Origin: Candidatus Nanohalarchaeota archaeon
GTDB taxonomy: Archaea; Nanohalarchaeota; Nanosalinia; Nanosalinales; Nanosalinaceae
Assembly (NCBI GenBank): GCA_022729235.1
Contig: JALDAJ010000001.1
Span: forward strand, 192,001 to 256,000
DNA length: 64,000 bases
Direction: 5' to 3'
Under the pieces are notes generated by a model. That model searched no databases. It saw only the letters and a program-made list of their open reading frames with translations, and was not told where the DNA came from. This document shows, in pieces, positions 10,325 to 44,510 of the stretch (positions are counted from its first letter, which is position 1; each line of letters begins with the position of its first letter). The translations under genes were made by a program, and so were the position numbers.

Positions 10325-10380
10325 TTCGAAAATCGGAGATTTTCTACATCACACAGAAACAACGAGGTAGTTTCGAATGA
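10319..10380. repeat. Junction hairpin insertion, GAATGA duplicated at 56-nt offset
   Basis: GAATGA at 10319 and 10375; contains GAAAATC-GGA-GATTTTC hairpin and GAGGT upstream of the new ATG. Confidence 0.7.
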
Positions 10381-25435: not shown

Positions 25436-25829
25436 ACCGGTAGGAGCAAATATTACAAGGACTCTGGACAAGGAAGCTGTTCTCACATGCGCTGACAACT
25501 CTGGCGCCCAGAAACTGCAAATAATCGGTGTCAAGCACACACAGGGCAGGCGTTCAAGAAGAGAGTCAGCTGGTGTAGGCGACATCGTAAAGGTCAAGGT
25601 TCTGAAGGGAGACCAGGAAGTCATGCACCAGGTCTTCGACGCAGTTATCGTGAGACAGGCAAAAGAATACCAGAGAGCCAACGGCATGAGGATTTCGTTT
25701 GAAGATAACGCAGCTGTACTTGTAGAGGAAAACATGCTACCAAAAGGATCTGAAACCCGTGGACCGATCGCGAAAGAAGTAGTTCAACGCTTCAGCCCGA
25801 TCGGAAAAATTGCTTCACAGGTGGTGTAA
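25431..25829 (+). CDS. rpl14: 50S ribosomal protein L14 (GTG start)
   Basis: CADNSGA, AVIVRQ, FEDNAAV, GPIAKEV. Confidence 0.97.
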   Translation: MKPVGANITRTLDKEAVLTCADNSGAQKLQIIGVKHTQGRRSRRESAGVGDIVKVKVLKGDQEVMHQVFDAVIVRQAKEYQRANGMRISFEDNAAVLVEENMLPKGSETRGPIAKEVVQRFSPIGKIASQVV

Positions 25830-25893
25830 AATCATGACAAATGATTTTACGGCTCGCAGAAAATCTCTGATTTTCGAGTGGTGTAAAAAATGA
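25821..25893. repeat. Junction hairpin insertion, ATG duplicated at 56-nt offset
   Basis: GTGGTGTAAAATCATGA and GTGGTGTAAAAAATGA flank an inverted copy (ATGATTTTAC) and TCGCAGAAAATC-TCT-GATTTTCGA. Confidence 0.85.
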
Positions 25894-30347: not shown

Positions 30348-31016
30348 ATGGCGCAGGAAGAAGTAGAAGAGGAAATATGGAACCCGAAGACCGAACTCGG
30401 TAGAAAAGTCGCAAACGGGGAAATCACACGGATAGATGAAGCACTGCACGCAGACGAGAAAATAATGGAGCCTGAGATAGTTGACCACCTCGTCAACCTG
30501 GACGAAGAAGTAATGCTTATCGGAGGAACACCAGGCAAGGGAGGTGGTAAAAGACGTACTGTATCCAAGAGAACCGCAAGGATGCACAAGTCAGGCGCAC
30601 GTTACAGGACAAAAGCTATGTCCGTACTTGGAGACAGGAACGGCACCATAGGACTCGGAAACGGGGAAGCAAACGATACTAGAGCAGCGATTGAGAACGC
30701 AGCAAGGGAGGCAAAACTTAACCTGGTATCTGTGGACAGAGGATGTGGTTCATGGGAATGCGCCTGCGGAACTGAACACAGCGTGCCTTTCGAAGTGGAA
30801 GGTAAGTCAGGGAGCGTAACGGTAACCCTGAAACCTGCACCGAAAGGTATCGGTCTTGCAGCAAGCGATGACATGGCAAAGATGCTCGAACTTGCGGGAT
30901 ACCAGGATGTATGGGTACAGTCCCGCGGAAAGACAAGGACACGTGAAAACCTTATCCGCGCAGGATTTAACGCGCTGAAGAAAATCAACGAGATGAAGAG
31001 AACAGAGGATAAATAA
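30348..31016 (+). CDS. rps5: 30S ribosomal protein S5
   Basis: W.PKT.LG, RGCGSWEC.CG..HS, PAPKGIGL. Confidence 0.96.
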   Translation: MAQEEVEEEIWNPKTELGRKVANGEITRIDEALHADEKIMEPEIVDHLVNLDEEVMLIGGTPGKGGGKRRTVSKRTARMHKSGARYRTKAMSVLGDRNGTIGLGNGEANDTRAAIENAAREAKLNLVSVDRGCGSWECACGTEHSVPFEVEGKSGSVTVTLKPAPKGIGLAASDDMAKMLELAGYQDVWVQSRGKTRTRENLIRAGFNALKKINEMKRTEDK

Positions 31017-31017
31017 G

Positions 31018-31077
31018 ATGACGAAAATCAGAGATTTTCTAAATCACCAGGAACTCAAAGGTGAGTTTCGGTAATGA
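31018..31077. repeat. Junction hairpin insertion, ATGA duplicated at 56-nt offset
   Basis: GAAAATC-AGA-GATTTTC plus GAACTCA-AAGG-TGAGTTT hairpins; new AGGTGA SD. Confidence 0.75.
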
Positions 31078-35633: not shown

Positions 35634-35780
35634 GCCGGGGTGACTGAGTCTGGACGAAAGTGCCAGCCTGGAATAGCCGGCTCCTCTTTGAGGTGACGGC
35701 TTGAGAAGAGCTCTTCTCTTCGATCCCAGTCAGCTGGTGACCCATACCGGGTCTCCTGGGTTCAAATCCCAGCCCCGGCG
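35634..35780 (+). tRNA. tRNA-Ser(GGA) with 58-nt intron (35674-35731) at 37/38
   Basis: GCCGGGG/CCCCGGC acceptor, CCAGC/GCTGG anticodon stem, long variable arm, GTTCAAATC; central helix CTGG/CCAG with bulges AA|T and TC|A. Confidence 0.93.
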
Positions 35781-35908
35781 TCTTCGACGCCTTGCTGGAT
35801 TTGATTATCCTCACATCTCTCACGAGAAGTTCAGGGTTCAAATCCGAGAAATCCAGTTCTGGTTTCGAGTTGCAGAAAATCTTTTGATTTTCGAACCCAT
35901 ATCCGGCG
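35758..35908. repeat. Hairpin insertion(s) with partial duplication of tRNA-Ser 3' end
   Basis: GGGTTCAAATCC at 35758 and 35834, inverted copy GCTGGATTTGA at 35794, GCAGAAAATC-TTTT-GATTTTCGA at 35872. Confidence 0.7.
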
Positions 35909-35962
35909 CTTATCTAATATTCAGCCGGTTTTATAACCGAACTTCACCAAATCTTGTCCATC

Positions 35963-36811
35963 ATGAAAAAATCTATCTTACTCGCAACACTTGTACTCGC
36001 TATAGGCGTGGGATTCGCGAGTGCACAGGACGCGGAGACTCAGGAAGAACCTCAACCTGACGAGGAGGTACCTGAAGAAGTAAGTACAGGATGGTTTACA
36101 CCTGACTCAGCGCTCTACGGGCTCGAAACTGCCTGGGATAACACAGGTATGGCTCTAGGAGTCAAGTCTCCTGGCGATGTAGCCCAGAAGAGAGCTGCCG
36201 AAGCTCAAGTAATGGCTGAAGAAGGAAACTACGGGGCAGCACAGAGGGCGGCGGAAGGACTTGAGAACGCCGCATCAAGAGCCGGAGATGACGATATCGA
36301 AGGTATTGAACAGGCAACATCGACACTTGAAAGAGTGATCGAAGATGCGCCTGAAGAAGCCCTTGAAGGCCTCCAGACAGCGATGGAGAACGTGGCGGAA
36401 GCGGGTCCGGAGGATTTAGAAATCGAACCAGGACCACCGGGAGATGAACCAGGTGAAGACGTAGAACCCGGACAGCCGGATGACGAGCCTCAACCAGGTG
36501 ACCAACCGAATGGTGACGCTGAAGCAGGCGGTGAAGAAACTAGAGAGATAGTAGTAGAGAACGACGGGATGTCATTCGAAACAGGAGAAATCGAGGTTGA
36601 AGAAGGAGAAGAAGTAACTATCACATTCGCCAACCAGGGCGGTATCCACGACCTGAGAATCCCTGAACTTGAAGTAGGAACAGAGGAAATCTCAGGCGGA
36701 GAACGAGCGTCCTTCACCCACACCTTTGACGAACCAGGAACTTACGAATTTGAGTGCAGCGTCGGCAACCACGCCGAACAGGGTATGACTGGAGATATAG
36801 TAGTTGAGTAA
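35963..36811 (+). CDS. Secreted protein: helical N-domain, Pro/acidic linker, C-terminal cupredoxin (halocyanin-like)
   Basis: Signal peptide, TPDSALYGL (DUF5667-like), type-1 copper ligands HDL...CSVGNHAEQGM. Confidence 0.8.
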   Translation: MKKSILLATLVLAIGVGFASAQDAETQEEPQPDEEVPEEVSTGWFTPDSALYGLETAWDNTGMALGVKSPGDVAQKRAAEAQVMAEEGNYGAAQRAAEGLENAASRAGDDDIEGIEQATSTLERVIEDAPEEALEGLQTAMENVAEAGPEDLEIEPGPPGDEPGEDVEPGQPDDEPQPGDQPNGDAEAGGEETREIVVENDGMSFETGEIEVEEGEEVTITFANQGGIHDLRIPELEVGTEEISGGERASFTHTFDEPGTYEFECSVGNHAEQGMTGDIVVE

Positions 36812-36869
36812 ACCCTGTTCCTGGGACTCCTTCCTTTATTTTTACTACTTGCGTCTTGAAGCCAGTTCT

Positions 36870-38237
36870 TTAATCTATATAGAGAGTTTTCCTATTCACG
36901 AACTCTTTGATGCCTTCCTCTCCAAGCTCTCGACCGTAGCCAGAGTTCTTCACTCCGCCAAAGGGCAGTCTAGGATCGGATTTTACTAGTTCGTTAACAA
37001 ATACATTCCCTGCTTCTAGCTCTCTACTAAGTCTTTCCGCCCTTTCCAAGTCTTGTGTCCATATTGAGGCGCCTAGACCGTATGGAGTTCTATTTGCAAT
37101 TTCAACTGCTTCTTTTTCGGAAGAAACCGTAAAGACTGAAGCTACAGGTCCGAATAGTTCTTCTTCATAAGCCGGTGTTTCCTCCGGGATATCTCTTAAA
37201 ATCGTGGGTTCGTAGAAGAATCCGTTTCTATCCGGTATGCTGCCGCCGGTAACCACTTCAGCTCCTGCTTTAACTGATTCTTCAACCTGAGCGGCAAGTT
37301 CATCTCTCAGGTCTTTCCTTGCTATAGGGCCTATATCTACATCTTCGTTCGCCGGATTTCCGATTTGCATGGATTCAAACTGATTCTTAAGCATCTCCAG
37401 GCATTCATCAGCGATGTCCTCGTGCACTATTATTCTTTTTGCGGCGATACAGCTCTGTCCGTTGTTAAGAAGCCTTGATGTCGTGGCTACCTCACATGCT
37501 TTCTCTATATCTGCATCTTCAAGAATTATGAATGGGTCGCTGCCGCCAAGTTCTAGAACCGTCTTCTTCAGGTTTTCTCCCGCCTGTCTTGCCACCGCTT
37601 TTCCAGCTCCCGTGCTTCCTGTCAGAGTTACTCCTCTGACCCGGTCATCTGCTATAATTTTGGAGGCTTGATCGTTTGTCACGTATATATTCTGGAACAC
37701 GCCCTCAGAGAACCCTGCGTCTTTAAAGATTTCTTCTATCTTCGCAGCAGTTTTCGGGACATTTGGCGCATGTTTCAATATACCTACATTCCCTGCCATC
37801 AGGTTTGGTGCGGCGAAACGCATTACCTGCCATAGAGGAAAGTTCCAGGGCATTATCGCGAATACCGGTCCTAGAGGCTCATATCTTACCGTGCTTTTCT
37901 GCGCATCTGTAGGTATATTCTTCTCCGATAAGTAAGACTCAGCATATGATGCGTAGTGTTCACATACCCACGCACATTTCTCTACCTCTGATTTTGCAGA
38001 ATTTATGGGTTTGCCCATCTCCTCTGTCATTGTTTCAGAGAGTTCCTTCGAGTTCTCTCTAAGTAAATCAGCTACTTTTCTCATTTTCTGCCTTCTTTCT
38101 TCAAACCCTGTCTTTCTCCATTCTTGGAACGTTTCCCAGCTTTTCTCCAGGACTTGTCTCACTTCTTGATCTGGAGCAGTTTCAAACTCCTCTATATTTT
38201 CCTCCGTAGCCGGGTTAACTATCCTGTATTTTGACAT
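36870..38237 (-). CDS. NAD(P)-dependent succinate-semialdehyde dehydrogenase (Sad/GabD-like)
   Basis: IMPWNFPLWQVMRFAAP, LTGST, LELGGSDP, NNGQSCIAAKR, EELFGP. Confidence 0.9.
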   Translation of the reverse strand: MSKYRIVNPATEENIEEFETAPDQEVRQVLEKSWETFQEWRKTGFEERRQKMRKVADLLRENSKELSETMTEEMGKPINSAKSEVEKCAWVCEHYASYAESYLSEKNIPTDAQKSTVRYEPLGPVFAIMPWNFPLWQVMRFAAPNLMAGNVGILKHAPNVPKTAAKIEEIFKDAGFSEGVFQNIYVTNDQASKIIADDRVRGVTLTGSTGAGKAVARQAGENLKKTVLELGGSDPFIILEDADIEKACEVATTSRLLNNGQSCIAAKRIIVHEDIADECLEMLKNQFESMQIGNPANEDVDIGPIARKDLRDELAAQVEESVKAGAEVVTGGSIPDRNGFFYEPTILRDIPEETPAYEEELFGPVASVFTVSSEKEAVEIANRTPYGLGASIWTQDLERAERLSRELEAGNVFVNELVKSDPRLPFGGVKNSGYGRELGEEGIKEFVNRKTLYID

Positions 38238-38248
38238 ATCTCTCCACT

Positions 38249-39889
38249 TCAAGTTGGACAAATCATTTCTCCAAGTTTTTCAGTCAACCTGTGATTTTCC
38301 TCGGGATCCACGGGAACCTCGATTACATCTACTTCTCCACTGTCCAGCGACTTCTCCAGTATTTCTGTAAGCTGGCAGGGCGATTCAACTCTGTGACCTT
38401 GAGCACCATAGCTCTCCGCCAGCTTCACGAAGTCAGGATTGTCGAACTCTGCGCCGAACTTGTGACCGTATTCATCCACCTGTTTCCATGTTATCGCACC
38501 TAATTCCTGATCATTGAATACCAGAAGCGTCAAATCAAGATTTAGACGTGTGGCTGTTTCAAGCTCTTGGGCGTTCATAACAAAACAGCCATCCCCTATT
38601 GTAGCTACTATATTCCTCTCAGGTTCCGCCAGCTTTGCACCTATAGCTCCAGGAAGCGCTATCCCCATAGTAGCCAGTCCGTTTGAAACAATGAACGTGT
38701 TGGGTTCATAGGTAGGGTATAACCTGCTCATCCAGAGTTTATGGGCTCCCGTATCTGTTATAAGCACGTCATCATCCGCCAGATGTTCTCTAAGATCATG
38801 CACTATTCTCTGGGGCTTCATAGGAAGTGAATCATCATTTGTGTACTTGTTAAACTCGTCTTCTATAAACCTCTTCAGGTCTCTCGAATATTCAGCATCT
38901 TTTCCTTCTATATCCTCCTCTTTCAAAGTCCTCAAGGATTGTCTAATATTCCCTACCATCTGTGCTGAAGGCCTGTAATGTTTGTCGACTTCCGGAATCC
39001 GTGAATCAATATGAATGATTTCCTTATCTCTATCAGGATTCCATTTTTCAGGATAATATTCTATGTAATCCGTACCTACGGCGATAATAAGGTCGGCCTT
39101 TTCTATACCACACATCACATAATCCCGGTTCTGAAGACCGATTGTACCGATAGAAAGGTCTTCTCTAGCCGAAATAGCTCCTTTACCCATGAAAGTAGTC
39201 ACGACAGGAATATTATTCTGTTTTACAAACTGTGTGAGCTCCTCAGACGCGCCGGAACGTATAACGCCGTTACCAGCTATTATATACGGATTTTCAGAAT
39301 CCTCTATTAGTTCAGCTACTTCTCTGACAGTTTCAGCGTCCGGTTTTGTATCGCTGTCAAGTCCGGGTTTCGGCAGCAAAGGTTCGCCAATATCCTTGTT
39401 TTCCAGGACATCCGCGGGAAGCTCTATATGAGTGGCTCCCGGTTTCTCAGACTCAGCAATCTGAAAGGACTTCCTGACTATTTCAGGTATAGCCTCCGGT
39501 TTTTCCACGGACTTATTGAACTGGGTGACTTCACTTAGAATATTTACGACATCAATATACTGGTGTGATTCCTTGTGCGTCTTATCTCTTTCTAGTTGAC
39601 CCGTTAAAGCTACTAGCGCGCCTGCATCCAGGTTTGCGTCAGCGACAGCTGTAATAAGATTCGTGGCTCCCGGTCCAAGAGTTGAAAGACATACCCCTGC
39701 ATCTCCTGTCAGCCTTCCATAAACATCCGCCATGAAAGCCGCTCCTTGCTCATGCCTTGTTAAAACAAGATCGATATCGGAGCGAGAAAGTTCGTCCATT
39801 ATACTCGTGGTCTGTTCACCCGGCAAACCAAAGATGTATTCCACTCCTTCATTTTCTAATGCCTTGATGAGAAGCTCAGAGCCTCTCAT
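38249..39889 (-). CDS. ThDP-dependent acetolactate-synthase-like enzyme (candidate 2-oxoglutarate decarboxylase)
   Basis: FGLPGE, RHEQGAAFMADVYGRLTG, TLGPGATN, SNGLATMG, GDG..N motif; coupled to SSADH, no small subunit. Confidence 0.85.
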   Translation of the reverse strand: MRGSELLIKALENEGVEYIFGLPGEQTTSIMDELSRSDIDLVLTRHEQGAAFMADVYGRLTGDAGVCLSTLGPGATNLITAVADANLDAGALVALTGQLERDKTHKESHQYIDVVNILSEVTQFNKSVEKPEAIPEIVRKSFQIAESEKPGATHIELPADVLENKDIGEPLLPKPGLDSDTKPDAETVREVAELIEDSENPYIIAGNGVIRSGASEELTQFVKQNNIPVVTTFMGKGAISAREDLSIGTIGLQNRDYVMCGIEKADLIIAVGTDYIEYYPEKWNPDRDKEIIHIDSRIPEVDKHYRPSAQMVGNIRQSLRTLKEEDIEGKDAEYSRDLKRFIEDEFNKYTNDDSLPMKPQRIVHDLREHLADDDVLITDTGAHKLWMSRLYPTYEPNTFIVSNGLATMGIALPGAIGAKLAEPERNIVATIGDGCFVMNAQELETATRLNLDLTLLVFNDQELGAITWKQVDEYGHKFGAEFDNPDFVKLAESYGAQGHRVESPCQLTEILEKSLDSGEVDVIEVPVDPEENHRLTEKLGEMICPT

Positions 39890-39936
39890 AATCGAATCTC
39901 TCCTCCCGGAGATTTCTGCCTATCCATACTAATGTG

Positions 39937-39957
39937 TAAAAATGTTGCACATTTTTA
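39937..39957. promoter_or_regulatory. 9-bp inverted repeat TAAAAATGT-TGC-ACATTTTTA, candidate operator
   Basis: Perfect palindrome between the HTH regulator and the decarboxylase/SSADH pair. Confidence 0.55.
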
Positions 39958-39961
39958 AACA

Positions 39962-40270
39962 TTAAAGTCGTTCGATTGCCTCCCTCTTTTCCTCCATCCA
40001 CAAATCCAGTTCTTTACTGGCTTTCTCCCTGAGACTCTCAGAATCCATTGAATAGACATGTTCCCTCCCATTTCTTGAAACCTTAACCAAACCTGCTTTC
40101 TTAAGTCCTGACAGGTATCTCTGAACAGTGCTTCTGTCAAGATTGATACTATCAGATAGCTCTTTAACCGTCATCTCCTCTCCACAAAGCTCCATCAGGA
40201 TATCTACATCCCTACTTTTCAGCTTGAAAACAACACTCAAGAGCTCCTCTAACTCGGGGGAACACTCCAT
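39962..40270 (-). CDS. Winged-HTH transcriptional regulator (TrmB/ArsR-like)
   Basis: MTVKELSDSINLDRSTVQRYLSGLKKAGLV. Confidence 0.85.
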   Translation of the reverse strand: MECSPELEELLSVVFKLKSRDVDILMELCGEEMTVKELSDSINLDRSTVQRYLSGLKKAGLVKVSRNGREHVYSMDSESLREKASKELDLWMEEKREAIERL

Positions 40271-40474
40271 ACATGTAAATAAAGAAACTATACTTTTATT
40301 CTTGAAACGTATCACAGCCAGCCAGAAGCCCGAATCCCTTTAACACGACCTTAATCAGTACCTGATTAATAGCTACTAACACGCGATTTCTGCAGAAGCC
40401 GTAAGAGAAACGAGTGTTCAAGGGACACACACAACATTAATAAACTTTGCGGTAACAACAGTTCTCTTGTAACC

Positions 40475-40681
40475 ATGACAGAATGCGAAATCTGTGGTAG
40501 AACCGAGAAAGAACTCAGCGAAGAGTTCGGACGCGAGATCAAGGTTAGCGAGCATGAAGGCATGAACAAGTGCCAGAAATGCCTCAGCGAGTACCAGAGA
40601 GAGACAGGGGAAGAAAAAGTCGAAGACCTTGATAACGAGCTCGCGGAAAGTAAGGACTGGAAAGACGTCGTAACGGCGTAA
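40475..40681 (+). CDS. Small zinc-finger-like protein
   Basis: CEIC...CQKC, acidic tail. Confidence 0.65.
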   Translation: MTECEICGRTEKELSEEFGREIKVSEHEGMNKCQKCLSEYQRETGEEKVEDLDNELAESKDWKDVVTA

Positions 40682-40712
40682 CATTTCTATTTCTTCCTTC
40701 CAAAACTTAGAC

Positions 40713-41063
40713 ATGCCACAGCCAGAAAACTATCTCAGAACCATCTACGAACTCTCCGAGAAAGGAGAGAGTTCTACAGCCAACTCCGAAGTAGCTGAGG
40801 CTCTAGACGTATCAGACGCAAGCGCCTCGGAAGCCATACAGAAACTGGAGGAGCGAAATCTAGTGTGCAGAGCACCCTACAAAGGCATTACCCTGAGCCC
40901 ACCCGGGAAAAAGCAGGGAGAAAAACTCTCCAGAAAATACAGCGTACTTGTAAAATTCTTCGAATGGTTAGGAGTTGAAAACCCTGAAAAAGAAGCTGTT
41001 GAAATAGAACACGCGATTTCCAGTGATGCCACGGAAAAGATAGAAGAACTCGTCAACAGATAA
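40713..41063 (+). CDS. DtxR/MntR-family metal-dependent regulator
   Basis: ENYLRTIYEL, VAEALDVS.ASASE, PYKGITL, EIEHAIS. Confidence 0.9.
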   Translation: MPQPENYLRTIYELSEKGESSTANSEVAEALDVSDASASEAIQKLEERNLVCRAPYKGITLSPPGKKQGEKLSRKYSVLVKFFEWLGVENPEKEAVEIEHAISSDATEKIEELVNR

Positions 41064-41150
41064 CATGTCAACGATATCAGTCCTCCAGGAACTAGTCCCC
41101 CAAGAATAGACTGTTTTCTTAAGTGTTGCCTTCTTTCAGTAAAATGTACG

Positions 41151-41223
41151 AAACAGCCCCCTGGTGTGAACGCAGATACGAGATCTGCTTGAAGCACACA
41201 GGAAGCAAATAGCCCCCTGGTGT
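41151..41223. repeat. Duplication of tRNA-Gln 5' end at 56-nt offset
   Basis: AGCCCCCTGGTGT at 41155 and 41211 flanking a GCAGAT-ACGAG-ATCTGC hairpin. Confidence 0.8.
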
Positions 41224-41343
41224 AGCGGTCAATCATAGCGGCCTTTGGCACCTCAAGTTCTCGTCAGGGAACGAGGACTTTGAAGAGCTCTGCTCTTCAG
41301 GTGAAGATAGCCGCTGACCCAGGTTCGAATCCTGGGGGGGCTA
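41211..41343 (+). tRNA. tRNA-Gln(TTG) with 60-nt intron (41249-41308) at 37/38
   Basis: AGCCCCC/GGGGGCT acceptor, GCGGC/GCCGC anticodon stem, GTTCGAATC; BHB: CTTT/GAAG helix, bulges GG|C and AT|A, outer ACCT/AGGT. Confidence 0.93.
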
Positions 41344-41346
41344 ACC

Positions 41347-41628
41347 ATGGCATCAGAAGTACGTGCATCCCACATCCTGGTCGACAGCAAGGAAAAAGCA
41401 CAGAACATAAAAGAACAGCTGGACAACGGAAAAAGCTTTGAACAGCTGGCAAAGGAGGCAAGCGAATGTCCCTCATCGGAGAAAGGAGGAGACCTCGGAT
41501 TTTTCGGAAAAGGTGACATGGTCAAGCCGTTCGAGAGGAAGGCGTTCAGCATGGATGTCGGCGACGTTTCCGGACCTGTCAAGACAGAGTTCGGGCATCA
41601 CCTGATCAAGAAGACTGATGAACGCTGA
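41347..41628 (+). CDS. ppiC: Single-domain parvulin peptidyl-prolyl isomerase
   Basis: RASHILV, SECPS..KGGDLGFF.KG.MVKPFE, VKTEFG.HLI. Confidence 0.92.
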   Translation: MASEVRASHILVDSKEKAQNIKEQLDNGKSFEQLAKEASECPSSEKGGDLGFFGKGDMVKPFERKAFSMDVGDVSGPVKTEFGHHLIKKTDER

Positions 41629-41678
41629 ACGCTGTCCACCCTTTATAAAATTTAGAGTGAAGTTGAGTGGTACGGGTT

Positions 41679-42170
41679 ATGTCTGAGACAAAAGAAGTTG
41701 TAAGAATTGCAAGAACAGATATCGACGGCACCAAGCCTGTAGCCAAAGCTATAACCTCACTGCAGGGTGTCGGCGAGACTTACGGTCACGCAGTATCACA
41801 GGTAATAGATGTAGATACAGAGACCAAGATAGGAGACCTTAGCGATGAAGAAATCGATAAAATCGAGGATACTATAAGAAGCCCGGAGGAAGCCGGAATC
41901 CCTGAATGGCTCAGAAACAGAAGAAAAGATAGGGAAGAAGGAGATGACCAGCACCTGATAGGTTCGGATCTTGAACTGAAAGAAGAATTCGATATCAGGC
42001 GCCTGAAAGAAATCGACTCGTACAAGGGCTGGAGACACGAAATCGGACTACCTGTTAGAGGACAGAAGACCAAGTCCTCGTTCAGATCAGGTTCAAAAAT
42101 CGGTGTTTCACGCGCACGCCTAAGAGAAGAAGCTTCCGAAGGCGGCGGAGACGACGAAGGTGAGGAGTAA
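41679..42170 (+). CDS. rps13: 30S ribosomal protein S13
   Basis: RIARTDIDG, WL.NRRKD, SYKGWRH..GLPVRGQKTK. Confidence 0.96.
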   Translation: MSETKEVVRIARTDIDGTKPVAKAITSLQGVGETYGHAVSQVIDVDTETKIGDLSDEEIDKIEDTIRSPEEAGIPEWLRNRRKDREEGDDQHLIGSDLELKEEFDIRRLKEIDSYKGWRHEIGLPVRGQKTKSSFRSGSKIGVSRARLREEASEGGGDDEGEE

Positions 42171-42192
42171 TGCACGGACAAGGTGATTTTGA

Positions 42193-42783
42193 GTGGTAAA
42201 AAAACTGAAGAAGCAGTACGAGACTCCTAACGAAGGATGGAACCAGGAAAGAATTAACAGAGAAATAGAGCTTATGGAGGAATACGGACTGAAGAACAAG
42301 GAAGAAGTCTTCAAAGCCCAGAGCCAGCTAAGAAGCCTGAGACGCGAAGCCCGTAACCTGGTAGCATCGGAAAACGAGAAGGAAAGGAAAGATCTTATTG
42401 AGAAAGCCAACCGGCTAGGGATTGTAAAAAAGGATGCAGAGCTTGAGGATATACTATCCCTAAGTGTTACAGACTTCCTTAACAGGAGACTCCAGACCGC
42501 AGTAAACAGGCGAGGATATACAGACACAGTGCAGGAGGCACGACAGCTTGTTGTTCACGGTCACGTTTACGTCAACGGACAGAGAGTAAACGTCCCGAGC
42601 TACATGCTTACACAGGAGGAAGAAAAAGGTATAGAGGTAATACTGCCTGAACCAGAAGATGAAGAAACAGAGCAGGAAGAAGATGAAGCCGAAGCAGAAA
42701 CAGGTGAAGAAGAGGAAACGGAAGAAAATGAAGAAGCAGAGGAAAAAACTGACGAAGAATCCGAAACGGAGGAAGAAGAATGA
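42193..42783 (+). CDS. rps4: 30S ribosomal protein S4 with acidic tail (GTG start)
   Basis: [27 protein letters not shown]. Confidence 0.96.
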
Positions 42784-43160
42784 CTAAAGGAATAGTTAAC
42801 ATCTACTCAAGCTTCAATAACACGATAATCCACATAACTGATGCTACAGGAGCTGAAACAATTTCCCGTATATCATCAGGCATGGTTACCGACAAAGGTC
42901 GGCTCCAGGGAGAACCGTTCCCTGCTATGAAGGCAGCGAAACAAGCAGTAGAGGAGGCACTGGAGAAAGGCATAGAAGAAGTAGACATCCAGGTAAGAGC
43001 ACCTGGAGGACAGAAACAGAAGATGCCCGGGAAAGGCGCACAGCCAGCTATCCGTGCGATTTCACGAAGCGAAATCGATGTCGGAAACATCGAAGACGTT
43101 ACACCCGAACCACACGACGGCGTAAGAGCCAAAGGCGGTAAGAGAGGTCGAAGAGTATGA
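42780..43160 (+). CDS. rps11: 30S ribosomal protein S11
   Basis: [28 protein letters not shown]. Confidence 0.97.
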
Positions 43161-43729
43161 ATATCGAAGTTGAAACAGAAGAAGACGGCGTCATGGAACT
43201 AAGACTTGAAAACGGGAACGCCGCAGTAGCGAACACTCTAAGACGCACAATGATGGCTAAAGTACCAACCCTCGCGGTACAGCACCTGGATATCGTGAAG
43301 AACGAGTCAGGTATTTTCGATGAAGTCCTGGCTAACAGGGTCGGACAGGTACCATTTACTATACCCGATAACGTTGAAGAAGGCGATACCGTGAACATCG
43401 CCCTGAAACAGGAAGGACCCGGAACAGTACTCGCTGAAGATCTCAAAACAGACAACGACGAGGCAGAACCTGTCAACCCAGAAGCTGTATTAGTCAGCCT
43501 GAAAGAAGATCAGGCACTGGAATTCGAGGCAGAAGCACAGCTAGGACGCGGTAAGGACCACACCAAACACCAGGGAGGAACAATCGGCTACGAGAAAGTC
43601 GATGAAGGAGAATTCCTCTTCAGGATAGAATCAACTTCCGGCTACAGCAACGAAGAACTCGTGGAAGCTGCGATTCAAGAAGTCAAGCAGGAACTTGATG
43701 AGTTCGAAGAAGCAGTTGAAGAGCTGTAG
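43157..43729 (+). CDS. rpoD: RNA polymerase subunit Rpo3 (D), short form
   Basis: [37 protein letters not shown]. Confidence 0.93.
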
Positions 43730-43814
43730 AATTTTTCTCTCATTCTGGATAACCTACCTCCCCCACTTTAAACTCTTCTACATTAATTCTCCTCTAGAGC
43801 CAGCTGTATCCAAC

Positions 43815-43965
43815 GCCGGGGTGGCCGAGTGGCTAAAGGCGCGGGACTTAAGTTCCTCAAGTTCTCCGACAGGGAGAACGAGGACCTAGAAGCGAACGCA
43901 CGTGAGCTTCGTGAGGATATCCCGTCCCCGCAGGGGGTGCGCGAGTTCAAATCTCGCCCCCGGCA
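43815..43965 (+). tRNA. tRNA-Leu(TAA) with 66-nt intron (43853-43918) at 37/38
   Basis: GCCGGGG/CCCCGGC acceptor, CGGGA/TCCCG anticodon stem, long variable arm, GTTCAAATC; relaxed BHB. Confidence 0.9.
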
Positions 43966-44043
43966 AATAATTTTTTCTGGCGAGATTTAATAAGCGGCAG
44001 AAAATCTCCGATTTTCAACCGAGTTCAAATCCCTGCCCCGGCA
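43943..44043. repeat. Duplication of tRNA-Leu 3' end (78-nt offset) with inverted copy and GCAG hairpin
   Basis: GAGTTCAAATC...CCCCGGCA at 43943 and 44021; AAATCTCGCC/GGCGAGATTT; GCAGAAAATC-TCC-GATTTTC. Confidence 0.8.
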
Positions 44044-44446: not shown

Positions 44447-44510
44447 TGGTCTCGGTCGAACCTCTGGTTCGAGCCGTTGAGAAGATCTCTGATCTTCGAA
44501 CCGCGAGGTG
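44447..44510. repeat. Double-hairpin element in rpl18e leader
   Basis: TCGAACC-TCT-GGTTCGA and GAAGATC-TCT-GATCTTC followed by GAGGTGA SD. Confidence 0.7.

Follow-up and report, generated by a model that had tools for sequence, protein, structure and literature searches.

Introns of three archaeal tRNA genes share short hairpin units with small, apparently mobile DNA behind tRNA genes and elsewhere between genes

Three tRNA genes in the window, the 64,000-nt stretch of DNA that we analysed, have introns built from short hairpin units that also lie dispersed behind tRNA genes and in the gaps between other genes, where they look like small mobile DNA. We favour the view, with a probability of roughly 0.58, that these units form one family of small non-autonomous hairpin cassettes, kept at position 37/38 of tRNA genes since the splicing endonuclease removes them there. 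If so, archaeal tRNA introns may originate in this way, a route that can be tested.

The Ser(GGA), Gln(UUG) and Leu(UAA) introns

When introns were allowed, aragorn found 20 of the 35 tRNA genes of the 1.03-Mb genome to be interrupted at 37/38. Three of the interrupted genes lie in the span 35674-43918 (aragorn; Rfam tRNA model for Leu), which opens with the Ser intron's first base and closes with the Leu intron's last, as placed by manual reading of the anticodon loops and by the fold. Their parts are as follows:

35634-35780, + strand: tRNA-Ser(GGA) gene, interrupted by a 58-nt intron at 37/38
35674-35731, + strand: Ser(GGA) intron by the bulge-helix-bulge fold (35675-35732 by aragorn)
35675-35700, + strand: by folding, a module A variant (A') in the Ser intron, AGCCG..CCUC uuu GAGG..CGGCU
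35701-35723, + strand: Ser intron module B (UUGA-GAAGAGC..UCUCUUC-GA)
41210-41347, + strand: tRNA-Gln(UUG) gene (aragorn) with a 60-nt intron at 41249-41308
41251-41278, + strand: Gln intron module A
41281-41299, + strand: Gln intron module B (UGAAGAGC ucu GCUCUUCA)
43815-43965, + strand: tRNA-Leu(UAA) gene, its 66-nt intron at 43853-43918
43855-43885, + strand: Leu intron module A
43888-43911, + strand: Leu intron module B, its upper part long (AGAAGC..GCUUCG)

The splice site of Ser(GGA) folds into the anticodon stem, a 3-nt bulge (AAU), a 4-bp helix (CUGG/CCAG) and a second 3-nt bulge (UCA). The Gln(UUG) and Leu(UAA) introns score 62.8 and 65.8 bits, respectively, with the R1 model, and in an intronless tRNA-Gln-like contig from another, more abundant organism, 41248 is joined to 41309. 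As judged from sequence and fold, all three are predicted to be ordinary spliceable bulge-helix-bulge introns at 37/38, filled by a conserved cassette of two hairpins, B coming after A or A'. The genome encodes a single endonuclease domain, in an ORF of 198 aa (96.1 bits), and its splicing endonuclease looks short and alpha4-like.

The original prediction was that these introns share hairpin modules with each other and with intergenic elements, and all the strings that it quoted were found where it had placed them, with a chance expectation of 0. The unit CCTCAAGTTCTC-loop-GRGAACGAGGAC, assigned to the Gln and Leu introns, has two matches in the window (41251-41278 and 43855-43885), as has GAAGAGCTCTKCTCTTC, assigned to the Gln and Ser introns (35705-35721 and 41282-41298); neither was matched in 100 shuffles. 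The Ser segment 35701-35723 differs from 44477-44499 at 3 of 23 positions, these two sites being the only matches in the window (0 in 100 shuffles). The latter site had been described as a variant of the GCAGAAAATCTCTGATTTTCGA module, which occurs at four window sites with up to 3 mismatches (0 in 100 shuffles) and at 18 sites genome-wide with up to 4. Its description as an rpl18e leader is reasonable: an L18e-like gene follows 44499 (PF00828, 32.5 bits; PF17135, 24.1 bits, under its cut-off), and then L13. An echo of the intron start AGCCGG (35675-35680) in the exon-2 start AGCTGG (35732-35737) is likewise present but is weak evidence. In 69 introns of the genome and its relatives, an average of 3.78 of the 7 positions agree between the intron start and its own exon-2 start, and 3.43 when the two are mispaired; the observed mean was reached by 0 of 200 shuffles, but the effect is small and the sequences are related.

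The hairpin family within and outside introns

Seven introns of the genome share the cassette, with module A (CCUCAAG..CGAGGAC) followed by module B (GA-GAAR..YUUC-GA); Ser-GGA has the variant A'+B, and an A'-type hairpin also opens introns in the relatives G008, G024 and G031. A covariance model made from the seven introns retrieves exactly these seven in this genome, at 58.7-69.9 bits, the next match (21.8 bits) being an A'+B unit in the 23S trailer. Among 40 related genomes, the cassette is present in 25 (18 of 24 in family f1, 3 of 7 in f3 and 4 of 7 in f4). Across 62 cassettes from 26 genomes, the bases of B (RAGAAR..YUUCGA) and of A (CCUCAAG..CGAGGAC) are nearly invariant and the upper stems covary, in both helices. 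Pairing occupies 92.6% of the cells, and 15 of the 18 pairs vary on both sides; 0 of 500 shuffles equal this pairing, and slid controls are 36-68% paired. Module B is an old, integral half of the intron cassette and no recent add-on. The suggestion that introns were expanded by the repeat family does not extend to module B. Extra or nested hairpins do visibly enlarge some introns, in its support: that of Arg-UCU reaches 116 nt, those of Met and Asn have two hairpins nested inside B, and module A is doubled in the Arg-UCG intron of the relative G005.

By manual reading of the 14 nt upstream of the matches, the cassette is hosted by about 16 anticodon types in 10 amino-acid classes, and about 50 of the 62 matches lie in anticodon loops. 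Gly-UCC, Leu-UAG, Pro-UGG and Ser-UGA are intronless here and have the cassette at exactly 37/38 in G001, G034 or G003, where the exons can be aligned on both sides. Ten of the 62 matches come after the GGTTCAA of a T-loop-like piece; the six that were inspected are all situated behind a tRNA gene, the 3' end of which is re-copied after them. On a tree of the 62 cassettes, clustering is significant neither by genome, with 48 changes where shuffling gives a mean of 50.8 (12 of 200 shuffles as low), nor by tRNA type (38 against 39.7; 38 of 200). Similarity between genomes is 0.633 for the same tRNA type and 0.637 for different types, and same-genome pairs are only slightly higher, at 0.661. Gain is inseparable from loss, and recent copying within a genome is at most weakly visible.

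Sharing extends well past the three introns first named. The Arg(GCG) intron is identical over 22 of 22 positions to two intergenic sites (E 2.7e-6 each), one of which is 44479-44500 in the L18e-like leader, and over 20 of 21 to a third. Module B of the Ser intron matches a hairpin of RNase P RNA (22/24), and the Thr(UGU) intron a Gly trailer (26/28); the Met intron, in its 3' part, is 32/36 identical to the leader 5' of tRNA-Val. A second intron family, of Cys and Thr-GGU (57/61), has a 27/30 match located after a stop codon. Comparison of introns with intergenic sequence thus confirms a common hairpin module, far beyond chance.

Module B belongs to the dominant hairpin family of the genome, the members of which lie mostly in non-coding DNA. 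Among 624 perfect hairpins, 101 start with GAA and end with TTC (20 for the next trinucleotide). Flanks of the type A..G or C..T border 53 of 71 merged hairpins, and 65 of 106 candidates lie outside ORFs, in 13% of the genome. Density per kb is 0.026 in coding, 0.358 in other non-coding DNA and 3.9 in introns, an 11-fold enrichment of introns over other non-coding DNA. The family has a GAA..TTC stem base within conserved flanks (NNA-GAAR..YTTC-GA), and most members are single B-type hairpins or pairs without A, the pairs often being inverted with ends that read TCGAAA..TTTCGA. The exact hairpin AGAARATC-NNN-GATYTTCG occurs in 28 of the 40 relatives, at 1-14 copies each, for a total of 143 (14 here and 129 in relatives), against 0 for the reversed pattern in the 41 genomes. 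Genomes with more copies of it tend to have more cassette introns (Spearman 0.63 over n=40 genomes, which, being related, are non-independent). Introns in lineages without the repeats and with no similarity to them were not the pattern found: cassette and hairpin are both present in 22 of the 40 relatives, neither in 9, introns only in 3 and hairpins only in 6, as counted with a strict hairpin pattern among non-independent genomes.

Outside introns, the following elements were delimited in the window:

10326-10375, - strand: hairpin pair TCGAAAC..GTTTCTG, spacer, GTA-GAAAATC..GATTTTC-GA
25832-25877, + strand: 46-nt two-hairpin insertion between two genes, with the direct repeat GTGGTGTAAAA at 25821-25831 and 25878-25888
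31022-31076, unstranded: intergenic pair of hairpins, its ends CGAAA..TTTCG, with a duplicated start-codon region
35781-35915, + strand: Ser trailer cassette, with a T-arm-like piece GGGTTCAAATCC, two GAA/TTC hairpins and a diverged re-copy of a tRNA-Ser 3' end
43966-44043, + strand: Leu trailer cassette, with GGCGAGATTT, a GAAAATC hairpin and a second T-loop-to-3'-end piece ending CCCCGGCA
44456-44499, + strand: L18e-like leader hairpins, TCGAACC ucu GGTTCGA and then module B at 44477-44499

That intergenic members behave like inserted DNA is supported by their absence from the matching sites of relatives and by flanks that are repeated or re-copied. The 25832-25877 insertion, between exact 11-nt direct repeats, is missing in G001 and G005, in both of which hardly any space separates the two genes; the 31022-31076 pair is missing in G001 and larger at the same site in G005; and the Leu trailer cassette, in which GGCGAGATTT is the complement of the gene's own T-loop and T-stem, is missing at the corresponding tRNA-Leu locus of the same-genus relative G001. 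These three intergenic or trailer copies are thus presence/absence polymorphisms, with an exact direct repeat at one and a re-copied flank at the others, although in relatives this distant (genes about 70-76% identical in DNA) absence could also reflect precise loss. For 15 of 53 oriented hairpins, 8 nt or more of the 3' flank recur upstream as a direct copy (null, 4.9%); flanking repeats vary irregularly in length, between about 7 and about 20 nt. In about a dozen tRNA genes, the tRNA end is followed by about 50-130 nt of hairpins and then by the re-copied tRNA end. By manual reading, the Ser(GGA) trailer, at which public contigs break, is nearly identical to the tRNA-Ser(UGA) trailer elsewhere in the genome. 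The pair at 10326-10375 lies 3 nt past one ORF and 32 nt ahead of the next. Other copies occur in RNase P RNA, in tRNA leaders, where they abut position +1, and in the 16S leader and 23S trailer. The hairpin pair of the L18e-like leader, in contrast, looks like a conserved structure, which argues against mobility: G001 has two hairpins of other sequence in the same place.

Proposed mobile cassettes and alternative readings

As mobile DNA, the elements would be copied into non-coding sequence (tRNA gene flanks, rRNA spacers, RNase P RNA and between protein genes), and copies beside tRNA genes would often adjoin a re-copied piece of that tRNA's end. A copy inside a tRNA gene would survive only where the cell can excise it from the RNA, and with a short, alpha4-like endonuclease the tolerated place would be the canonical 37/38 site. 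The presence of the cassette at 37/38 in many tRNA genes, with carriers that shift by genome, may then arise because it is excisable only there; T-loop cassettes appear only in what would be spare, duplicated 3' pieces behind the gene. We infer that copies move as DNA, that those in introns arose by the same process as those between genes, and that splicing acts as a filter on where copies survive. The idea that introns were gained from the repeat family is partly borne out, by the insertion-like intergenic members and by carriers that vary between genomes, but no clear target duplication was seen at the introns themselves, which counts against mobility. A search of the genome with a handful of Pfam families, which other kinds of transposase could escape, found neither a Y1 transposase nor a reverse transcriptase, and TnpB-like (20.4 bits) and DDE_Tnp_1 (21.4 bits) matches only as sub-threshold fragments; two tyrosine recombinases are encoded, with no linkage to the hairpins.

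The order-wide retention of B in the cassette and the sense orientation of all intron copies fit an RNA-level role as well as they fit mobility. Possibly, the hairpins function in RNA, B together with A or A' forming a unit for binding or folding that serves a factor which processes, protects or chaperones precursor RNAs. Selection, and not mobility, would then account for their occurrence in introns, leaders and trailers of tRNAs, rRNA spacers, RNase P RNA and some mRNA ends. The near-invariant stem bases and covarying upper stems, the sense orientation of 6 of 6 perfect intron copies and the retention of the exact 19-mer hairpin in three families of the order, despite the divergence of their genes, would all be expected of such a module. 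So would the copies in discarded parts of nearly all stable-RNA precursors, the two hairpins of the G001 L18e-like leader and the likeness of the Ser(CGA) trailer here to the Ser(UGA) trailer of G003 (about 90% over about 49 nt, by manual reading). We nevertheless consider this role unlikely as the explanation, given the copies that are absent at matching sites of relatives and the duplicated flanks at filled sites. Moreover, the 31022-31076 copy has its B hairpin antisense to both neighbouring genes, 23 oriented copies lie inside predicted ORFs, the modules match no Rfam family, and a K-turn reading was rejected (the expected G is present in 16 of 53 copies and the pairing register is unfit). 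Where the flanking genes run in the same direction, sense copies number 12 and antisense copies 17, a count confounded by inverted pairs, which read alike on both strands.

It is quite improbable that the direction was the reverse, with an old self-propagating tRNA intron spread among tRNA genes by recombination or by the excised and possibly circular intron splicing back in, and the other copies its stray offspring or fragments. The full A+B unit does lie mainly in anticodon loops, the cassette is widespread and old, and module A, as a hairpin, is limited to introns in this genome; the Met intron resembles the tRNA-Val leader, and trailers of relatives hold the full cassette within tRNA-derived sequence, as expected if tRNA-like structures were the target. 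Against this stand the failure to find a reverse transcriptase with the families searched, the predominance of B-type hairpins without A, and insertions between protein genes, one with an exact direct repeat, that have no tRNA-like target. That the similarity is meaningless, a product of easy A/T-rich GAA..TTC palindromes, old vertical introns, convergence or chance, is very unlikely indeed, and the controls contradict it already. In its favour, the shared unit, of about 20 nt, is short and hairpin-constrained, the background is high for stems of at least 6 bp (80 in the reversed genome, 166 observed), and orthologous introns are not more alike than non-orthologous ones; but every shuffle test gave 0 matches, identity is complete at the two Arg(GCG)-matching loci, GAA-type stems are in five-fold excess among perfect hairpins, and both the reversed-pattern control and the enrichment in introns point the same way.

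Comparison with known elements

Recurrent tRNA introns of Thermoproteales were reportedly described by Fujishima et al. in 2010 and Sugahara et al. in 2008. Non-canonical tRNA introns are linked to a broad-specificity type of splicing endonuclease; unlike in Thermoproteales, all introns here are at the canonical 37/38 and the endonuclease looks alpha4-like. The preprint 10.64898/2026.10.13.758758 describes recurrent ('transposed') introns in Thermoproteales, similar in sequence across tRNA identities in one genome, the carriers of which differ among related genomes and the persistence of which is tied to a spliceable bulge-helix-bulge site, as here. In the present family, however, it is the two-hairpin architecture that is kept across the order, not high identity (mean pairwise about 0.64), and the modules are not confined to tRNA genes, being found also as intergenic repeats that some genomes have and others lack.

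Rickettsia palindromic elements are small palindromic repeats that settle where harm is little, RNA genes included; they differ from ours in lineage, sequence and size and are alike in being small palindromes within RNA genes. Bacterial REP/BIME/REPIN elements are mobilised by RAYT Y1 transposases, whereas a Y1 transposase was not found here with the Pfam families used, and the conserved head is A-GAA..TTC-GA, not GTAG or CGTC. To our knowledge, REPs make no flanking duplications; these are present here, and the hairpins lie inside tRNA introns and RNase P RNA, in an archaeal host. Features in common with the bacterial elements (PMC3733652, PMC3184786) are the short hairpins (about 20-35 nt), the base of which is conserved while the stems covary, in tens of intergenic copies and often in inverted pairs.

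Miniature inverted-repeat transposable elements, or MITEs, going by excerpts of two reviews (PMC10969869, PMC11602168), are similar in being non-coding, with inverted ends (here TCGAAA..TTTCGA in pairs), flank duplications and presence/absence between genomes. Compared with the MITEs of those excerpts, our elements are much smaller (about 40-55 bp), a parent insertion sequence or transposase was not found in the genome with the families searched, and the flanking repeats are irregular in length; where elements follow a tRNA gene, what is repeated is that tRNA's own segment from the T-loop to the 3' end. Disruption of tRNA genes by integrating elements, with intron gain linked to mobile DNA, is the subject of Sugahara et al. 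(2012; PMC3293823), and here too partial tRNA gene copies lie beside an intact gene. In the case described there, a 1.8-kb recombinase-encoding element separates the copies, whereas here only about 50-130 nt of hairpins lie between them.

Introns of the tRNA genes and their two-hairpin cassette

The genome, from a sample labelled as a soda lake metagenome, is a single contig of 1,027,595 bases with 48.5% G+C, and it is matched by archaeal rRNA and RNase P models. Searched as a whole with aragorn and intron detection, it yielded 35 tRNA genes, a total at which further genes may be hidden, and 20 of these have an intron in the anticodon loop; the Rfam tRNA model found 30 tRNA genes at E <= 0.01. 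All 20 introns were placed by aragorn one base 3' of the anticodon, that is at 37/38, the intron position named in the original prediction. Three of the intron-bearing genes lie within the span with which that prediction dealt:

35634-35780, tRNA-Ser(GGA), intron-bearing
41210-41347, tRNA-Gln(UUG), intron-bearing
43815-43965, tRNA-Leu(UAA), intron-bearing; the gene is supported by the Rfam tRNA alignment

Seven introns, in the genes for Gln-UUG, Leu-UAA, Arg-UCU, Arg-GCG, Arg-UCG, Thr-CGU and Lys-UUU, are built on one plan, which we call the cassette. Two or three bases are followed by hairpin A, made of CCUC, a bulge of two A residues, a variable stem and CGAGGAC; after another 2-3 bases comes hairpin B, with GA-GAAR, a variable stem and YUUC-GA, and then a short complement of the anticodon loop. 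A covariance model made from the seven (R1) matched exactly these source introns in the genome, at 58.7-69.9 bits, and hairpin A was not found outside them; the next-best match, at 21.8 bits, was a related unit right after the 23S rRNA. The Ser intron has a variant of A (A') as its first hairpin and then B. B-like hairpins were also seen by eye in the Thr-UGU, Leu-GAG, Trp, Met and Asn introns, and in the last two B appears to enclose two extra nested hairpins. The Cys and Thr-GGU introns (57/61 identical) form a second family, and the nested parts of the Met and Asn introns (55/65 identical) a third. As with recurrent or transposed introns, similar introns are found in tRNA genes of different identity within this one genome.

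The tRNA-Trp and tRNA-Met introns have in common GATGATTAAAAC after hairpin B and an AUGAGG motif ahead of the first hairpin, which to the eye resemble box C and C' of methylation guides. Guides with these boxes occur in tRNA-Trp introns of other archaea. No guide family in Rfam matched the Trp or Met introns, and on 16 intron-bearing loci only the tRNA model reached the Rfam threshold, the models below it being unrelated microRNA and snoRNA families.

In the minimum-energy fold of the Ser pre-tRNA a textbook bulge-helix-bulge is predicted, with 3-nt bulges (AAU and UCA) flanking the 4-bp helix CUGG/CCAG. The minimum-energy folds of Gln and Leu lack this structure; a 4-bp complement to the anticodon loop can be found by eye, and the junction of hairpins A and B is predicted to stand in place of the helix beyond the 5' bulge. 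The ends of the Gln intron were confirmed by an intronless tRNA-Gln-like gene in public contigs, which joins 41248 to 41309. These contigs have a depth of 120-600x, as against about 15x for the present organism, and the 3' half of the gene differs; by its high depth and divergent downstream sequence, the joint belongs to the intronless tRNA-Gln of another organism, and it serves here only as a check on the intron ends. In the same samples, the tRNA-Gln of a much more abundant organism has a similar 5' half. No variant without a hairpin element was seen among the public DNA contigs compared. The splicing endonuclease was detected as a single PF01974 match (96.1 bits) in a 198-aa ORF, a length that presumably fits the homotetrameric type, which needs canonical sites. 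At 285340-285525 (-) in whole-genome coordinates, aragorn called a tRNA-Ala(AGC) and put its intron at position 34. From the anticodon-loop sequence CUGUUA and the absence of a G3-U70 pair, we read this gene as a probable tRNA-Asn(GUU) with a 112-nt intron at 37/38.

Hairpin B as a genome repeat and its probable insertion sites

Among 624 perfect hairpins in the genome (stem of at least 7, loop of 3-9), 101 start with GAA and end with TTC; the next commonest trinucleotide accounts for 20. Merging of overlaps gave 71 GAA/TTC hairpins, 53 of them with A..G or C..T flanks, the two orientations of NNA-GAAR..YTTC-GA. Under looser criteria, 65 of 106 candidates fell outside predicted ORFs, in sequence that makes up 13% of the genome. 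The density per kb was 0.026 in coding sequence, 0.358 in other non-coding sequence and 3.9 in introns, where the hairpin was in sense in 6/6 copies. Inverted pairs were frequent, with the arrangement TCGAAA..TTTCTG, spacer, CAGAAA..TTTCGA.

The Arg-GCG intron is identical over 22/22 positions to the leader of an L18e-like gene and to a second intergenic site, and over 20/21 to a third; the Ser intron matches a hairpin in RNase P RNA at 22/24. Such sub-families suggest copying rather than independent invention. The hairpin at 44477-44499, originally assigned to an rpl18e leader, does precede an L18e-like gene, followed by L13, and every string quoted in the original prediction was found in its place, with 0 chance matches in shuffle controls. 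The echo seen between the start of the Ser intron and that of exon 2 is also present, as a small effect only.

The exact form AGAARATC-NNN-GATYTTCG occurs in 28 of 40 relatives of the same order, with 1-14 copies each, and the reversed control had no match in any of the 41 genomes. Genomes with more copies tend to have more cassette introns (Spearman 0.63, across genomes that are related and not independent samples); when the two sets of matches are compared, about a dozen of the counted copies are the introns' own B hairpins. At whole-genome 761756-761830, directly 3' of the stop codon of a protein gene, lies a homologue of the three-hairpin Cys/Thr(GGU) intron, with compensating changes in two hairpins, which indicates that the second intron family, too, has an intergenic relative.

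Two readings of hairpin B as a known signal were set aside. A K-turn has tandem G-A/A-G pairs next to a 3-nt bulge and a closing stem. For an L7Ae-binding K-turn, or a box C/D element, the required 5' partner G is present in just 16/53 copies, and the predicted internal loops, 1x2 or 3x2, lack the K-turn register. As for terminators, the hairpins often lie close 3' of stop codons, yet they also occur within introns and 2-34 nt ahead of start codons.

Sites were compared with G001, of the same genus, and with a second relative, G005; the genes of both are about 70-76% identical to those studied here, and the comparison is thus a distant one. All three loci compared differ in presence or absence at matching sites, as MITEs do:

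25832-25877, two-hairpin insertion of 46 bases, flanked by the direct repeat GTGGTGTAAAA; the flanking genes nearly abut in G001 and G005
31022-31076, hairpin pair with CGAAA..TTTCG ends, standing between a stop codon and the start codon after it, with the sequence around that start codon duplicated
43966-44043, tRNA-Leu trailer cassette of 78 bases, missing at the matching tRNA-Leu of G001, where sequence further downstream still aligns

The direct repeat around the first insertion measures 11 nt (at 25821/25878). That around the second is imperfect and about 7 nt long (at 31015/31070); this pair is not in G001, and in G005 a larger array takes its place. Across the genome, 8 or more bases of the 3' flank are repeated exactly and in direct orientation, no further than 158 bases upstream, at 15/53 oriented hairpins, against a null of 4.9% obtained from mismatched pairs. 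No target duplication was found at the introns. Inverted copies of the flank were not enriched as a general feature (5/53, against a null of 5.2%); most are seen downstream of tRNA genes, the T-arm there being palindromic in its own right.

Cassettes in related genomes, tRNA trailers and other stable RNAs

R1 matches were found in 25/40 relatives, distributed over the families of the order as 18/24 (f1), 0/1 (f2), 3/7 (f3), 4/7 (f4) and 0/1 (f5). Together with those of the present genome they make 62 cassettes. In the alignment of these, which was fitted to the R1 model and is hence tilted toward the structure, 92.6% of cells pair and 15/18 pairs show changes on both sides, a result equalled by 0/500 shuffles; sliding the pairing partners lowered pairing to 36-68%. 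About 50 of the 62 come after an anticodon loop, as judged by eye from the 14 bases upstream. Some 16 anticodon types are represented: Arg UCG/UCU/GCG, Leu UAA/UAG, Gln UUG, Lys UUU/CUU, Thr CGU/UGU, Pro UGG/CGG, Ser UGA, Gly UCC, Cys GCA and Glu UUC. These assignments were read manually, because several aragorn labels of the matches were wrong. The genes for Gly-UCC, Leu-UAG, Pro-UGG and Ser-UGA are intronless in the present genome and have a cassette exactly at 37/38, between well-aligning exons, in G001 or in one of two other relatives, G034 and G003. As with recurrent introns, the carriers of the cassette vary among related genomes, by gain or loss. No non-canonical intron position was found among the 20 introns of this genome and the anticodon-loop matches in relatives, all of which are at 37/38.

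A tree of the 62 cassettes (60 columns) showed no significant clustering by genome, tRNA type or amino-acid class; 12/200, 38/200 and 104/200 shuffles, respectively, were as low as the observed value. Mean identity was 0.633 for the same tRNA type across genomes and 0.637 for any others, and slightly higher, 0.661, within one genome. The differences in carriers may therefore reflect either gain or loss of a cassette.

In the present genome, about a dozen tRNA genes have trailers (including 35781-35915 and 43966-44043) in which GAA/TTC hairpins terminate in a second copy of the tRNA's own T-loop-to-discriminator segment, 16-20 bases long for Gly-GCC, Cys, Lys, Trp and Phe; the Lys and Pro-GGG trailers hold two units in tandem. 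Ahead of the trailer hairpin stands a complement of the T-loop and T-stem, e.g. CGGGATTTGA, so that a single long hairpin can form from the whole unit. In relatives, 10/62 R1 matches come after the GGTTCAA of a T-loop-like piece; each of the 6 inspected stands downstream of a tRNA gene, with the 3' end of that gene copied again after it. Thus, the complete A+B unit also occurs outside anticodon loops. Its T-loop occurrences are limited to spare partial tRNA copies behind genes, as would be expected if an endonuclease restricted to canonical sites cannot remove the cassette from a T-loop.

The RNase P RNA, at about 267625-268108 of the genome (79.8 bits, just below the curated Rfam value of 84), has a 51-base A'+B insert between model positions 257 and 258. 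A close copy of this insert, also an A'+B unit, lies at 263240-263305, about 30 nt past the 3' end of the 23S rRNA. The RNase P RNA is about 484 nt long against the 288 positions of the model, with other large inserts of 54, 53, 51 and about 37 nt, and a GAA/TTC hairpin at 256501-256521 precedes the 5' end of the 16S rRNA by about 30 nt. The last 60 or so nt of the 203-nt tRNA-Met intron are homologous to the 5' leader of the neighbouring tRNA-Val (32/36 positions; 91899-91952 and 92090-92292), and a GAAACT hairpin abuts tRNA position +1 in Val and Ser(CGA). One module thus stands ahead of a 3' exon in one place and of a tRNA 5' end in another.

Proposed origin of the cassettes and relation to known elements

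The reading best supported by these comparisons is that the introns, the trailer cassettes and the intergenic hairpins belong together, as a single family of non-autonomous hairpin elements of very small size. Position 37/38 would then be the site at which a copy inside a tRNA gene can survive. A wider proposal, to which we give a probability of roughly 0.3, is that tiny hairpin cassettes without a transposase insert into the seven-base hairpin loops of tRNAs in these small archaea. Landing at 37/38 would yield a spliceable intron, making the cassettes an actual source of archaeal tRNA introns; a cassette landing in the T-loop would persist only if it lay in a duplicated 3' portion of the gene, and such portions would now litter the trailers; RNase P RNA and the rRNA spacers would have been remodelled likewise. 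The other reading that we keep alive is that the hairpins are functional RNA, and it is favoured by the strong conservation of the hairpin bases and by the sense orientation of every intron copy. The original prediction, that the introns were gained or expanded by the repeat family, is partly right. The link that it drew is real and the repeats look mobile; however, hairpin B makes up an ancestral half of the cassette and did not invade it late. A hairpin common to introns and intergenic sites is borne out (22/22), and transfer may have run from repeat to intron or the other way.

Copying of introns between tRNA genes has been proposed for Thermoproteales (10.64898/2026.10.13.758758), and in Caldiarchaeum intron gain has been tied, as a proposal, to an integrating element (PMC3293823). 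The present genome resembles the Thermoproteales in its similar introns across tRNA identities and in their changing carriers; spread to non-canonical positions, a feature there, was not found here. The nearest repeat classes are REP and MITE elements. With REPs and REPINs (PMC3733652, PMC3184786) the hairpins share many short intergenic palindromes with a conserved head, but the head here, A-GAA..TTC-GA, is unlike that of REPs, and no match to a cognate RAYT (Y1 transposase) was obtained with PF01797 (genome 95% complete; a control search matched 6/14 known genomes). With MITEs (PMC10969869, PMC11602168) they share presence or absence at matching sites. The pair units end in TCGAAA..TTTCGA and the flanking direct repeats are irregular in length; no parent transposase with the same ends was found above cut-off for PF01797, PF07282 or PF01609. 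None of the systems compared unites intron families at the canonical site, a common intergenic hairpin repeat and re-copies of tRNA ends, and no published description of such cassettes was found in searches covering the main text of articles.

How introns come into archaeal tRNA genes can be approached concretely in this lineage, with its two-hairpin cassette in about 16 anticodon types, carriers that differ by genome, T-loop-like copies behind tRNA genes, and a hairpin common to introns and to intergenic repeats that are present or absent with duplicated flanks. Closer relatives or a culture could allow intron gain to be caught in the act and the enzyme to be identified. Our Pfam searches for mobilising enzymes covered PF01797, PF07282, PF01609, PF00589 and PF00078, and among these families no enzyme that moves the hairpins was identified. 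A reverse transcriptase was not found in the genome by profile search, and TnpB-like and DDE fragments were present below threshold. Two tyrosine recombinases, both unlinked to the hairpins, were detected (whole-genome coordinates):

862694-863212 (-), tyrosine recombinase 1, 66.4 bits, in a 472-aa ORF
841035-841625, tyrosine recombinase 2

Some 700 nt separate the first from the tRNA-Thr(GGU) 3' end, as at the border of an integrated element. Partial tRNA copies were also seen near two tRNA-Pro genes. The genuine tRNA-Pro(UGG) is followed some 800 nt downstream, at 158700-158830 (-), by a copy without the 5' part, which runs from the anticodon arm to the 3' end and has a hairpin pair inserted in its T-loop between TTCAAGTCC and GAATCC; for tRNA-Pro(GGG), 20 nt of the 3' end are repeated 830 nt further downstream. 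The arrangement looks like the border of a small integrated element.
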